Shown here piece after piece: positions 24,142 to 28,492 of a DNA stretch of 64,000 bases. The notes beneath the pieces are model-generated. The model was given only the letters and a program-made list of their open reading frames with translations. It did no database searches and had not been told where the DNA came from. The stretch spans positions 5,532 through 69,531 of the forward strand of contig JAZLLQ010000031.1 in the NCBI GenBank assembly GCA_045598245.1. The letters run 5' to 3'. Each line of letters begins with the position of its first letter. Positions within the stretch are counted from its first letter, which is position 1. The position numbers were made by a program, and so were the translations under genes. The stretch comes from Candidatus Gastranaerophilales bacterium (lineage in GTDB: Bacteria > Cyanobacteriota > Vampirovibrionia > Gastranaerophilales > JAILCC01).

Positions 24142-24417
24142 TTAGATATTTATATCGAGATAAGATTTTTCACGTTCGGCTATATCCAATACTTCTTGAG
24201 TTGCCTTGGCTCTGAGGACAGCTTCATCAGCTTTTGCAGCTTTTGCTAATTTACGGAAATAATCTGCTTTATACGTTGACGGATATGCTCCAACGAAACC
24301 ATCCCCTACTTTTATAAGTTTCGTAGCGTTTTTGACCAGGTCACTAACCTGAGCAGACGTAATACCGGGTTTCCCTCTACCGAATGAATTATTAAATTCT
24401 ATATTATTTATAATCAT
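24142..24417 (-). CDS. hypothetical 91-aa protein (N-terminal tag family)
   Basis: The track start at 24426 is a GTG that lies inside the SD AGGTGG. The ATG at 24417 follows it by 5 nt. N-terminus MIINNIEFNNSFGRGKPG. No family recognised. Last gene of a 4-gene minus-strand unit. Confidence 0.6.
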   Translation of the reverse strand: MIINNIEFNNSFGRGKPGITSAQVSDLVKNATKLIKVGDGFVGAYPSTYKADYFRKLAKAAKADEAVLRAKATQEVLDIAEREKSYLDINI

Positions 24418-24433
24418 AATATCCACCTATAAC

Positions 24434-24865
24434 TTAAAGTTCTGAATATGGTCTTGGCAATTCAAAAGGATCACCTTTGTAAAATTCAGGGACATCATCA
24501 TCGCCAAAATAGTCAACTTTTTCTACTTCTGATGAAGAAGAATCAGTCTCGACCTCTTCCTTTTGTTCCGGCTTTCTCACGGTCACAGCAACAGAAGGGT
24601 ATTCCGACAAAGGCTTTATCTCTACTTTTCCGGGAAAATATTTTTTATAAGCATGATAAACTTTTGAATGAAGCAAGCCTAAATCATCCAACATAAGCAT
24701 CAATTTTCTGTCATTCAATACTTTTAATTCTTCCTCCGTAAGTTCCGAAGGATTAATTTTTACTTCATCATTTTCCATATCAACTACTGTTCTGCAAAAA
24801 CAGAGTTTATTATTTTGTTTATTATACGGATTATTATAAATGTTATTAACAGGTCCTATTCTCAT
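24434..24865 (-). CDS. hypothetical 143-aa acidic protein (N-terminal tag family)
   Basis: The track ORF (to 24937) would overlap the upstream gene by 56 nt. The ATG at 24865 has GGAG upstream and gives MRIGPVNNIYNNPYNKQNN.... Confidence 0.6.
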   Translation of the reverse strand: MRIGPVNNIYNNPYNKQNNKLCFCRTVVDMENDEVKINPSELTEEELKVLNDRKLMLMLDDLGLLHSKVYHAYKKYFPGKVEIKPLSEYPSVAVTVRKPEQKEEVETDSSSSEVEKVDYFGDDDVPEFYKGDPFELPRPYSEL

Positions 24866-24881
24866 AATAAATATTCTCCAA

Positions 24882-27800: not shown

Positions 27801-28088
27801 TATCGGTTTATCACCTTGAACAAGAGTATTACCAACTTGAACAGATGTACTTTCATTAAACAGTTTTCCTTGTGCAAGGTCTTGAGCTACGGTACCAACA
27901 CCACCCGTAGAAAGCAAATCACCACATTCTGATGTAATTATAGCGATTTGATTTTTTTTAGTGCCACCAAAAGTAAGGAGTTGAGGAACAAAATTATTTG
28001 GAGCAGAAATAACATTACTCGTTTTTTGAATACTTTGTGTATTCATATAACGGTTTGTATGTGATTGCAAATTCAGATTTACTTGCAT
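24882..28088 (-). CDS. giant glycogen/starch-synthase-like (GT5/GT-B) protein with internal insertion, long C-terminal extension and C-terminal TM anchor
   Basis: 1068 aa. GT5-like blocks: IAIITSECGDLLSTGGVGTVAQDL (K-x-GGL-type loop), ILIMPYYNG, IMHNAGLGYQQ, TVAPSYAKSI, GITNGLDTENFGP. After a ~250-aa Lys/Glu-rich insertion come FVAWGRADDQKAVD and IIPSRWAPCELTDLEPMRYGGTPIVTGLEGLYD (compare SRFEPCGL.Q...MRYG..P.V..TGGL.D). C-terminal helix FAFLGIAALGALGCYLL. GGAG SD. N-terminus MQVNLNLQSHTN...LLTFGG. Confidence 0.7.
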   Translation of the reverse strand: MQVNLNLQSHTNRYMNTQSIQKTSNVISAPNNFVPQLLTFGGTKKNQIAIITSECGDLLSTGGVGTVAQDLAQGKLFNESTSVQVGNTLVQGDKPILIMPYYNGQCIYEKDPDGPFLPDKRDAAKYKKAEMLKKSGKPIFTAEIMQPKATTPDTLSANKYKGLELVTTKKMDFAGKTQEIALYRVKGAKKMQAYMIATEATMRMRKPYEGAGGYSSKLRPLGEPDAYAEFCKAVVELTPELEQEGVNPRHWLLNDAQCAYIPEYINQKNLAGSAYYNDVKLSYIMHNAGLGYQQRQNAQTMALNFISNQDIEALSGNAVWNSLTDAEKERVYREAVKPFLTSDYQASPVMVALRHCDNGSLVTHCSTVAPSYAKSIAKGNGFADGIKDILLQRMYEQGNFTGITNGLDTENFGPQFLYCANPKEVNVYDAKLSLQNLTDKPGMQKDEALTIDKAVMKKLSEAGLVSTADANAIKVEMDGVETLQKLRESYPSALSAQKKLQDLMDKNAPQDELKKAQLTPEQRKVLADFKALRSEIEADVAEEIKKAGGTKSAKLNLSENEIISRKLAKINSPTGMTSSNSIIQQVVEDGNKVSYYVQPFEKYSKDTPVDEVIKIKQRNLQNLLTRIYLHNNAGLPVNYVAIKDKDSAKIAGDISLDLLQRMKKGEKITSFVAWGRADDQKAVDVTIDSYIKFVTTKPEEAKNTVLIMGGPIEGSHLEKEIRAKIELAKRSCKGNFVFMEGFAPNKVLSTAGLAPIIPSRWAPCELTDLEPMRYGGTPIVTGLEGLYDKNFDLIKDPKRATGFTTNHHMNTPLADIDVSKLTPDGKKAVLEYRKKYASIIEKQRNELKSILFEGDVRYTAPEIDYRLRLFIDNSESCGELKALRQKTTDALVIDDLVDAMSKRVSISADDERKIVKNALNMKTKWSDNGLLQSLPNADSVKTSARQLYYERHFNPSRQVSGSSTKVRYRSVMQVFQEIFRDKIEKAKRDAEMKKKQAATLIHDTEDFFERATTVITNKKTFAEKYLNKQTAFAFLGIAALGALGCYLLKSDDDVRTPYRRKAGMHKRR

Positions 28089-28111
28089 TCTGTAGAACTC
28101 CTTTATAAAAA

Positions 28112-28492
28112 TTATCTTAATGTCAAATTAGTATATGTATCAAACAAATCATCGGCTACTTCATCTACCAACCTTCTTGGATTTACCCAAAAACCGCTTT
28201 CATGATAATTGTTCATAGTCATTAAAACATCTTCCGTGCCAAATGTTTTTAACCTTGCAATTCTGTCAGGCGTCCAAATACCGCCGACATCAGGAATACA
28301 AGATAAAACCACATCATCATCATAGTCAACTTTTCTTAACTTTTTAGCAAAAATATCAGCAGCTGCTTCAAATAAATCTCCTTTACATTTAAGATGCATT
28401 AGCTCTTTTACTCCATCAGTAACTCTCAAAGTTGCAGCAAAATTTGGTTGTGATTTTATATTTGTATGAGTGCATATAGGACTAATTTTCAT
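28112..28492 (-). CDS. hypothetical 126-aa protein (N-terminal tag family)
   Basis: The ATG at 28492 is preceded by AGGGGG; the track start at 28513 lacks an SD. N-terminus MKISPICTHTNIKSQPNFAAT. First gene of the unit containing the GT5-like giant. Confidence 0.6.
   Translation of the reverse strand: MKISPICTHTNIKSQPNFAATLRVTDGVKELMHLKCKGDLFEAAADIFAKKLRKVDYDDDVVLSCIPDVGGIWTPDRIARLKTFGTEDVLMTMNNYHESGFWVNPRRLVDEVADDLFDTYTNLTLR

Follow-up and report, generated by a model that had tools for sequence, protein, structure and literature searches.

A long glycogen-synthase-like protein with a predicted C-terminal membrane helix and an altered active site in gut Gastranaerophilales

Why should a bacterium that possesses a standard glycogen synthase encode, in addition, a relative of that enzyme that is far longer and ends in a hydrophobic helix? 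The question is raised by four co-oriented open reading frames (ORFs) at positions 24142-28492 of a 64,000-nucleotide stretch of DNA (the window; G000:C31:5532-69531) from a Candidatus Gastranaerophilales bacterium, a member of a group of non-photosynthetic relatives of cyanobacteria, whose genome (G000) is assembled in 52 contigs totalling 2.06 Mb, with ~33% GC and 97% completeness. The ORFs, of 126, 1068, 143 and 91 amino acids (aa), each have their own Shine-Dalgarno site; like every other feature of the window described below, they lie on the minus strand. A first-pass annotation of the sequence had recorded these four closely spaced genes, which are present as described, and had taken the 1068-aa product (24882..28088) for a membrane-associated glucan or other polymer synthase with dedicated small partners. 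Its estimate that the protein is about twice the normal size is apt, as the genome's own canonical GlgA has 485 aa.

Fold and active site

The resemblance to GT5 enzymes, which might have been spurious, is genuine. The Pfam model PF08323 (Glyco_transf_5) matches residues 170-380 with 51.5 bits against a cut-off of 22.7, and a genome-wide six-frame search with the same model likewise places the ORF above the cut-off. The NCBIfam model TIGR02095 matches residues 661-811 (E = 4.6e-24), with a best score of 84.9 bits against a cut-off of 328.45. A phmmer search of the sequences in the Protein Data Bank (PDB) returned the glycogen synthases (GS) of E. coli and A. tumefaciens, granule-bound starch synthase (GBSS) and the starch synthases SS4 and SS1. 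An AlphaFold2 model based on a 70-sequence family alignment has a mean predicted local distance difference test score (pLDDT) of 76.6 and a predicted template modelling score of 0.76, with the Rossmann domains at pLDDT 90-98, and shows the two Rossmann-like domains and the C-terminal helix crossing back that define the GT-B architecture. When this model was compared with the PDB using Foldseek, the top 14 matches were all GT5 synthases (E 1e-15 to 1e-13, target template modelling scores 0.60-0.74), followed by GT35 phosphorylases; the best of them, GBSS (6gnf), E. coli GS (2qzs/3cop), rice GBSSI (3vue) and SS4 (6gne), have E ~1e-15 and target scores of 0.66-0.74. Every GT5/GT-B motif block quoted in the first-pass annotation could be located: LSTGGVGTV (residues 59-67), IMHNAGLGY (284-292), STVAPSYAK (366-374), TGITNGLD (401-408), IPSRWAPCELTDLEPMRYGGTPIV (757-780) and, at the C-terminus, the hydrophobic segment FAFLGIAALGALGCYLL (1032-1048). 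The 1068-aa protein thus has the GT5/GT-B fold of glycogen and starch synthases and is a divergent paralogue of the ADP-glucose-type enzymes.

To relate this fold to known catalytic residues, the sequence was aligned with the E. coli GS chains of 3cop and 3d1j. The ADP-glucose contacts described for GS are H161, V211, N246, R300, K305, E377, G380 and L381 (PMC7137382), and their counterparts in the query are, respectively, H286, V368, N405, R676, K681, A762, E765 and L766; by motif alignment, D137 corresponds to D255, E9 to E54 and G17/G18 to G62/G63, and N287 is the equivalent of N162. Conservation was read from two alignments of the family, with 45 and 70 members that share on average ~25-30% identity with the query. 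In both, residues E54, G62, G63, D255, H286, N287, V368, N405, R676, Q680 and K681 are invariant, and L766 is invariant in the larger alignment and present in 44 of the 45 sequences of the smaller one. All mapped donor contacts are kept except two, both situated on the active-site helix IPSRWAPCELTDLEPMRYGGTPIV (25749..25820): the position of Glu377 is occupied by Ala762 and that of Gly380 by Glu765, so that the segment reads PSRWAPCE in the query and PSRFEPCG in the canonical enzyme. Glu377 is reported to be indispensable for E. coli GS, and the corresponding substitution, E486A, to inactivate Arabidopsis GBSS (PMC4339375).

The two exceptions are not independent. Across a 163-row alignment of the family with canonical outgroups, the residue pair at positions 762/765 is A/E in 107 rows, E/G in 54, and M/E and A/D in one each, and the combinations A/G and E/E never occur. 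On a FastTree tree the state of this pair changes 12 times by parsimony, and branches whose local support is 95% or more make at least nine of these changes unavoidable; the tree is, however, a quick one of a fast-evolving family, and the number of switches could be inflated if alleles or paralogues have recombined. A β-strand ends at residue 757, and in the segment after it the Gly380/Glu765 position comes three residues later than that of Glu377; Glu765 would probably sit near the same face as the Glu377 site. Since selection appears to keep exactly one carboxylate in the pocket, the family is more likely to be active than dead, and we read the coupling between A/E and E/G as a catalytic carboxylate that may have moved three residues along the helix and not as the signature of a dead enzyme. 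The concern that catalytic residues might be missing is, in this sense, half justified: the canonical glutamate position holds an alanine, and the coupled substitution points to relocation.

Architecture, family range and N-terminal tag

The domain layout was derived from alignment to the genome's 485-aa GlgA, from the AlphaFold model and from per-position occupancy in the family. Residues 1-42 (27963..28088; MQVNLNL...LLTFGG) form an N-terminal tag that is predicted to be disordered (pLDDT ~41 over residues 1-41). The N-terminal Rossmann domain follows (residues 43-415; 26844..27962), containing the PF08323 match and residues E54, G62-G63, D255, H286-N287, V368 and N405, and carrying, by alignment and model, an extra β-rich insert at residues ~73-160. 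Beyond an insertion at residues 421-590 (26319..26828) lies the C-terminal Rossmann domain (residues 600-810; 25659..26291), with R676, K681, the TIGR02095 match and pLDDT values of ~90-98. This domain is extended by a two-helix insert (residues 808-880; 25449..25667) that is family-wide, with an occupancy of 0.76-1.0 and pLDDT ~85-95 for the helices at 823-851 and 860-873, and that is absent from the genome's own GlgA. The usual GT-B C-terminal crossing helices (residues ~905-955, with W925 and Y948) and a long linker helix (residues 971-1011 of the model) lead to the C-terminal transmembrane helix FAFLGIAALGALGCYLL (residues 1032-1048; 24945..24995; Kyte-Doolittle mean 2.14, AlphaFold helix 1028-1048) and a basic tail of 20 aa.

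Occupancy and the C-termini of the relatives identify four features as family-wide: the tag, the N-domain insert, the helical insert at 808-880 and a C-terminal localisation element. The insertion between the Rossmann halves, described in the first-pass annotation as ~250 aa long and Lys/Glu-rich, is real, but it measures ~170-190 aa (~421-600), is mildly charged (K 13%, E 9%; K, E, D and R together 31%, against 26% overall) and is confined to a few relatives in the query's sub-lineage, including P0001, P0008 and P0009; at 421-590 its occupancy does not exceed 0.35 and its mostly helical model is of low confidence (pLDDT largely <60). As a functional feature of the family it was rejected. The supposed C-terminal extension of ~300 aa resolves into the ~70-aa helical insert of the family, the normal GT-B helices, a ~75-aa linker helix and the transmembrane segment with its tail. 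What stands is that the architecture, with its tag, inserts and C-terminal transmembrane helix, is not that of a cytosolic GlgA.

The terminal transmembrane helix is the sole transmembrane-grade segment in the protein: on the Kyte-Doolittle scale 17-mers above 1.75 are confined to residues 1030-1048 of the 1068, the N-terminal region reaches 0.7 at most, and the hydropathy scan revealed no signal peptide. The arrangement, a single transmembrane segment no more than ~40 residues from the C-terminus with no N-terminal signal or other membrane segment, is that of tail-anchored proteins. Among 151 long family sequences, 98 pass a strict hydropathy threshold within their last 80 residues and ~28 more have G/A-rich, transmembrane-like segments just below it, so that ~83% of long relatives carry an equivalent G/A-rich hydrophobic C-terminal segment; most of the others end in F-x-x-x-F, as in NNKFAACFNKIA. 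A C-terminal transmembrane segment or an F-x-x-x-F end is therefore the norm in this family, and because two alternative devices occur at the same place, attachment of the C-terminus to something, most simply the membrane, is probably part of the function. In a large clade (L036, L040-L042, L067-L069, L076, L079, L081-L087, L092 and others) the G/A-rich transmembrane segment is followed by a strongly conserved terminus, ...GYKxGWLSPKFEEEKKxGHLSCVG; the query's own tail, KSDDDVRTPYRRKAGMHKRR, matches neither this clade nor the F-x-x-x-F ends.

An exhaustive HMMER search of 1.84 billion representatives produced 237 matches with E < 1e-3, of which 65 have E < 1e-30; their length is 840-1200 aa and their identity 30-37% in almost every case. 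The back-translated active-site pattern [AE]PC[EG]LTD[LFH]E, searched in one genome each of 185,579 species, occurs in 118 stretches, 111 of which encode relatives. By their record titles, almost all of these loci belong to Gastranaerophilales, Melainabacteria or "Vampirovibrio" metagenome-assembled genomes from the gut, or to unnamed gut bins; a few are titled Gammaproteobacteria, Muribaculaceae, Fusobacterium, Acinetobacter or Heliobacteriaceae and are taken to be mislabelled bins. Two relatives are named by NCBI, one as "glycosyltransferase" and the other as "hypothetical protein". Within the order, a family profile (E <= 1e-30) detected long GT5-like genes in 34 of 121 evenly sampled genomes, distributed over three of 10 families and with none in the other families searched.

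The protein also evolves rapidly. Its positional orthologues in G022, G027 and G015 are ~29-38% identical to it, whereas the canonical GlgA of the same genomes is, relative to that of G000, 88% (G022), 85-92% (G027) and 85% (G015) identical, and the rnpA, yidD and rpmH products of G027 are 80%, 79% and 96% identical to those of G000. Outside the active-site motifs, the GT5-like protein diverges several-fold faster than housekeeping enzymes. The two same-genus copies fall in different sub-clades of the FastTree tree, a pattern suggesting that alleles at this locus have been replaced or have strongly diversified.

The tag links the protein to a broader set of genes. According to the first-pass annotation, all four ORFs of the cluster carry it; all four do start with M-x-[IV]-x-x-[IVL], and three of them continue with the [NST]-F-x-[GA] element. 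In the GT5-like family the consensus is MKINAI...ISFxGGN, with M1 and F40 kept in at least 90% of members, and most relatives of the 1068-aa protein retain the tag. A simple screen, stricter than a tag-like start, picks up dozens of ORFs across the genome with the same start and an F-x-G element, 77 of the 7022 ORFs that reach 60 aa. Upstream of the 126-aa gene (g126), 56-95 nt before its start, lies an A/T-rich promoter-like box, TAGCAAATTTTTTTTTGTTAGTACTATATATGATAAGAAT (28548..28587), which can be read as TAGCAAATTTTTTTTT...GATAAGAAT with a TAGCAAATTTTT box. Many tag-bearing genes have its core, GCAA[AC]TTT[TA]T, in front of them: of the 33 copies with an ORF behind them, at least eight precede a tag-like start, compared with 77 of 7022 ORFs in the stricter screen, which is a rough count and no statistical test. 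A fuller form, with [TG]GCAA[AC]TTTTT and, ~12-20 nt further on, an element like TTTTAATAT, is likewise found before many of these genes, for example those at 15433(-), 13924(-), 39427(-) and 20037(-). The box resembles a dedicated promoter, a putative function suggested by its sequence. With its tag start, its [STN]-F-x-G element and the box upstream, the 1068-aa protein belongs to the tag-bearing set.

The other tagged proteins include two NTP_transferase paralogues, a protein with a HAD/S6PP-like domain and an ORF with an AAA-type ATPase motif. The NTP_transferase paralogues (C11:6794-8008 and C42:45884-47095; 61% identical to each other) resemble pyrophosphorylases of nucleoside diphosphate (NDP)-sugars and match the glgC model weakly, and a tagged 1291-aa protein (C1:35550-39422) begins with the HAD/S6PP-like phosphatase domain. 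A tagged NTP_transferase was considered as a dedicated NDP-sugar supplier and set aside: it is present in five of the 121 genomes, as against 34 for the long GT5-like genes, and is not an obligate partner. Since the families of the tagged proteins need nucleotides, NDP-sugars or acetyl-CoA, a periplasmic destination is argued against, which would leave two options, a role inside the producing cell or delivery into another cytoplasm. The F-x-G-G end of the tag recalls a double-glycine leader, for which a C39 exporter would be expected; this candidate was dropped, there being no Peptidase_C39 in the genome at its 97% completeness. Two full-length genes of the FHIPEP (FlhA/SctV-type) family (890 and 710 bits) and a partial one (159 bits) are located at C9:10870-12849, C29:13327-15303 and C37:12806-13855; the possession of two or more export gates of the type III style may be relevant to the role of the tag.

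Proposed function and rival explanations

The remainder of the glucan pathway sets the context in which the protein would act. A canonical GlgA is encoded at G000:C32, with the KVGGL, NDWH, RLVDQKG and PSRFEPCG motifs intact; GlgC is present (486 bits, above cut-off), as are three GH57 genes and a 564-aa ORF that is read from its sequence as a GT35 α-glucan phosphorylase, PF08323 matching it weakly. No GH13-type GlgB scores above cut-off in the genome. Of the canonical glgA/glgB/glgC set looked for elsewhere, then, GlgA and GlgC exist, and in place of a GH13 GlgB there are the three GH57 genes. Because both GlgC and a canonical GlgA are encoded, ADP-glucose should be available and the long protein adds to GlgA and does not replace it.

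The reading that we favour, and to which we give an even chance, is that the protein is an active GT5 α-glucan synthase working at the membrane of the cell that makes it. It would be a retaining NDP-glucose:α-glucan glucosyltransferase in which the donor-binding residues are kept and the essential glutamate has shifted by three residues along the helix (Glu377 to Ala762, Gly380 to Glu765). Its C-terminal helix would tail-anchor it in the membrane of the producing cell, on the cytoplasmic side, relatives without the helix using the F-x-x-x-F motif instead, and the disordered tag and the promoter-like box would place it in an apparently co-regulated, tag-bearing set. ADP-glucose made by GlgC would then be used to prime or elongate an α-1,4-glucan at the membrane, beside a storage pathway of GlgC, GlgA, GH57 enzymes and phosphorylase. 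We infer activity, donor, product, membrane topology and the role of the tag from the features described above. The first-pass idea of a membrane-associated synthase survives here in its enzymatic and membrane parts, a GT5 synthase-like protein with a C-terminal transmembrane segment, and has lost the dedicated partners.

A number of observations weigh against this reading. The position of the essential glutamate is occupied by alanine, and the best sequence match in the PDB is 3cop, the E377A mutant of E. coli GS, which ranks first because the query shares its alanine. The lysine of the K-x-G-G-L motif (E. coli Lys15) is missing from the query, which has S-T-G-G-V with both glycines invariant, and at this position (60) lysine is found in 29 of 45 and 33 of 70 family members. 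All GlgA equivalog models (TIGR02095, NF0018xx-NF0019xx, NF0106xx) score the protein far below their cut-offs. The ~29-38% identity of its orthologues, against 85-92% for canonical GlgA, would be more in keeping with a protein that is exposed or exported than with a synthase in a housekeeping role, and the tag may be an export signal. Finally, the tail behind the transmembrane helix reads as more basic than the stretch before it, so that by the positive-inside rule a topology with the N-terminus inside is not favoured.

Several of these points suit an exported or translocated effector, which we regard as unlikely and yet as the strongest of the rival explanations. Here the tag would direct secretion, for instance by an export apparatus of the flagellar type III kind, and the GT5 domain would act in the cytoplasm or at the membrane of another cell, its helix inserting after delivery and glucan being made or remodelled there. 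A Sec signal is absent from the first ~41 residues, a polar stretch that is predicted to be disordered, and the same tag is found on unrelated proteins of nucleotide- and NDP-sugar-using families (NTP_transferase, AAA-type ATPase motif) that need a cytoplasm. The FHIPEP genes, the moderate hydrophobicity of the G/A-rich transmembrane segment, the basic tail behind it and the low identity of the orthologues in the very genome pairs in which GlgA is conserved all agree with such a role, and there are precedents in the secreted chlamydial GlgA (PMC3722199, bioRxiv 10.1101/2020.10.11.335026) and in the non-flagellar use of flagellar type III secretion systems (PMC7688988). On the other hand, the tag has a recognisable consensus, unlike classical type III secretion signals, and the genome lacks a C39 peptidase exporter; the F-x-x-x-F ends of the relatives without a transmembrane helix resemble a peripheral membrane- or protein-binding peptide of a resident protein, and the gene sits among the housekeeping genes rpmH-rnpA-yidD. 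Moreover, we know of no Gastranaerophilales that are predators or live inside other cells. The broader claim, that the whole family consists of fast-evolving, tail-anchored glycogen-synthase effectors of gut Gastranaerophilales with a re-engineered active site in which the catalytic glutamate has shifted by one helical turn, the tag serving as an export signal, possibly through a flagellar-type apparatus, for delivery into another cell or compartment where α-glucan would be built or remodelled, we consider doubtful.

It is improbable, in our estimation, that the protein is an active GT5-fold transferase with a different chemistry, that is, one that uses another donor (a UDP- or GDP-sugar), acceptor or linkage and makes, for instance, an α-1,3-glucan, a surface or capsular glucan, or a product on a lipid or protein acceptor. 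The GT5 domain does occur in fungal α-1,3-glucan synthases. The relocated glutamate and the variable K-x-G-G lysine would alter the donor pocket, the N-domain insert (residues 73-160) and the C-domain helical insert are where acceptor binding would differ, and membrane anchoring would suit a surface polymer; in addition, the closest relatives retain a large autotransporter next to the gene, and the genome has its tag-bearing NTP_transferase paralogues. Against this, the nearest structures and profiles are all of α-1,4 ADP-glucose enzymes, neither an exporter nor a multi-pass membrane domain is fused to the protein or encoded beside it, and the tagged NTP_transferase is far less widespread in the order than the long GT5-like genes.

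About equally improbable, and last by a narrow margin, is a pseudo-enzyme that binds glucan and/or nucleotide without catalysis and serves as a membrane scaffold localising or seeding glycogen granules, after the precedent of SS5, an enzymatically inactive homologue of SS4 (bioRxiv 10.64898/2026.08.24.746836): the alanine in place of an essential glutamate, the match to an inactive mutant, the lost lysine, the very low glgA model score and the replacement, in the query, of the tryptophan of the (H/N)DW(H/Q) motif (NDAQ) speak for it, but the other donor contacts are invariant despite an overall family identity of ~25-35%, exactly one acidic residue persists at 762 or 765 through ~12 switches, a pattern that would hardly be expected unless selection acted on catalysis or on a very specific ligand contact, and nothing is missing from the C-terminal Rossmann domain, which is modelled with confidence. 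As judged from sequence and model, the protein appears not to have undergone the loss of catalytic or donor residues, or of the C-terminal GT1-type subdomain, that characterises SS5-type proteins.

The locus and the place of the protein among GT5 enzymes

The starts of the four ORFs were refined by reading Shine-Dalgarno sites. The first gene, g126 (28112..28492; MKISPI...PNFAA), has a GGGGG Shine-Dalgarno site and encodes a tag-bearing protein; downstream of the GT5-like gene follow g143 (24434..24865), for an acidic protein of 143 aa with a tag-like start (MRIGPVNN...), and g91 (24142..24417), for a tag-bearing protein of 91 aa that starts MIINNIEFNNSFG (also given as MIINNIEFNNSFGRG). The gaps between them are 23, 16 and 16 nt; the tight spacing first reported, 7-24 nt, holds in substance, but 7 nt is obtained only if g91 starts at a GTG at 24426. 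The frame of g143 is open for 24 codons further upstream (24866-24937, ATG at 24937), which would give a 56-nt overlap with the end of the 1068-aa gene; the start at 24865 fits the tag and the Shine-Dalgarno site, and the exact 143-aa product is absent among the called proteins of the public collection. A scan of 23900-28800 for sigma-70 promoters and intrinsic terminators gave the same counts as shuffled sequences, so that the case for an operon consists of the spacing and the Shine-Dalgarno sites, by which the four ORFs are probably co-transcribed.

Directly upstream of the cluster, beyond a spacer of ~215 nt that contains a GC-rich hairpin and the promoter-like box, is the end (28730) of a gene for a 2104-aa autotransporter-like protein (28730..35044), identified as an ORF with a Pfam Chlam_PMP repeat. 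This protein has a signal peptide and a C-terminal β-barrel ending ...GGLVFKF, is 39-54% identical to its counterparts in G015 and G022, which likewise stand immediately before the GT5-like gene, and has three more distant paralogues in the genome (two on C20, one on C14). Downstream lie rpmH (L34; 23911..24063), rnpA and yidD, in an order that is kept in G027. An 84-aa ORF at 23050-23304 has a prepilin- or class-III-signal-like start (MKIKAQSLIEFAIILMAVTIVA), with a marginal match to the Pfam model Class_IIIsignal (E = 0.09), and is kept after yidD in G027 (L025:5012-5242).

The notion of dedicated small partners in a conserved four-gene synteny did not hold up when neighbours were surveyed by tblastn and phmmer over 80 plus 11 family loci (76 plus 11 when full-length loci are counted). 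None of the three small proteins matches a Pfam or NCBIfam family, in agreement with the first-pass statement that they lack a recognisable one, but g126 does have a few distant relatives. No homologue of g143 exists in the surveyed loci or elsewhere in the genome. The one homologue of g91 (36% identity) is in the same-genus genome G027, where it likewise separates the GT5-like gene from rpmH-rnpA-yidD and g143 is missing; across the 80 further loci, tblastn found neither g91 nor g143. In G015 and G022 the autotransporter gene abuts the family gene with no g126 between, and a different tagged small ORF (113 or 235 aa) follows. Relatives of g126 adjoining a family gene were found by phmmer and jackhmmer only at L099 (divergent, upstream) and in the near-identical pair L069/L073 (downstream); a profile search of the order sample added G011, which has no long GT5-like gene at the threshold used, and G047, where the relative and that gene are on different contigs. 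These relatives share NF-A-L-V and GF[WY]xN..R...A[ED]D[LM][FY] blocks; an AlphaFold model of g126, based on a four-sequence alignment, is unusable (pLDDT 37). Other clades have constant neighbours of their own, such as a ~202-aa downstream ORF starting MIIKTFIEPPIDNNNYLLIDE, or a ~394-aa upstream ORF together with a response regulator downstream, and small tag-bearing ORFs often adjoin the family gene, different ones each time. The four ORFs are best regarded as an operon put together locally from lineage-specific, tag-bearing genes and not as a conserved machine.

Among characterised proteins, the closest are the members of CAZy family GT5, that is, GlgA (E. coli GS, 2qzs/3cop; A. tumefaciens GS, 1rzu) and the starch synthases (6gnf, 3vue, 6gne), which share the GT-B fold (target template modelling scores 0.66-0.74), the equivalents of E9, G17/G18, D137, H161/N162, V211, N246, R300, K305 and L381, and the C-terminal crossing helix. 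The 1068-aa protein differs from them in its roughly doubled length, its tag, N-domain insert, ~70-aa helical insert, ~170-aa inter-domain insertion and transmembrane anchor, in the replacement of Glu377 by alanine with a glutamate at +3, in the unconserved K-x-G-G lysine, in scores below the equivalog cut-offs and in its several-fold faster evolution. With the set of tagged Gastranaerophilales proteins it shares the start, the F-x element and the promoter-like box of its cluster, which form a context and not a protein family.

Two known systems offer functional parallels. In Arabidopsis, SS4 and SS5, together with the thylakoid-associated protein MFP1, likewise combine a GT5 catalytic or pseudo-catalytic domain and long helical extensions with glucan initiation at a membrane, SS4 having a coiled-coil extension and MFP1 tethering granule initiation to the membrane (PMC10801857, bioRxiv 10.64898/2026.08.24.746836). 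The SS4 catalytic domain is among the top Foldseek matches; the likeness is otherwise one of function, there being no homology outside the GT5 core, and in the plant proteins the extension is N-terminal and the tether a separate protein, whereas the 1068-aa protein has an intrinsic C-terminal transmembrane helix and internal and C-terminal helical additions. The C-terminal Rossmann domain of SS5 is not complete, unlike that of the 1068-aa protein. The second parallel is the GlgA of Chlamydia trachomatis, a GT5 synthase that leaves the bacterium by means of an acquired N-terminal signal and reaches the inclusion lumen and the host cytosol (PMC3722199, 10.1101/2020.10.11.335026). This likeness would hold if the tag is an export signal, in which case the family would be the counterpart of the secreted chlamydial GlgA in a free-living gut bacterium. 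There are differences nonetheless: chlamydial GlgA is the organism's sole GlgA, of normal size, with the canonical glutamate and no transmembrane helix.

To our knowledge, no bacterial GT5 enzyme has been described with an intrinsic C-terminal transmembrane anchor, an N-terminal lineage tag or a catalytic glutamate shifted by three residues, and a literature search for these features in bacterial GT5 enzymes found none. The combination of tag, intrinsic membrane anchor and fast divergence is a new architecture for such enzymes. Glu377 is treated as indispensable in the GT5 glycogen and starch synthases, which rank with the most thoroughly studied glycosyltransferases, and a family that appears to shift this carboxylate, toggling it about a dozen times without ever losing or doubling it, would constitute a natural experiment on the positioning of the catalytic acid in retaining GT-B enzymes. 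The 1068-aa protein also provides the tag with a cargo of easily assayed predicted activity, and hence a possible reporter for the role of the tag. For the organisms themselves, the sequence evidence suggests that these uncultured relatives of cyanobacteria may make or place α-glucan at the membrane or outside the cell.

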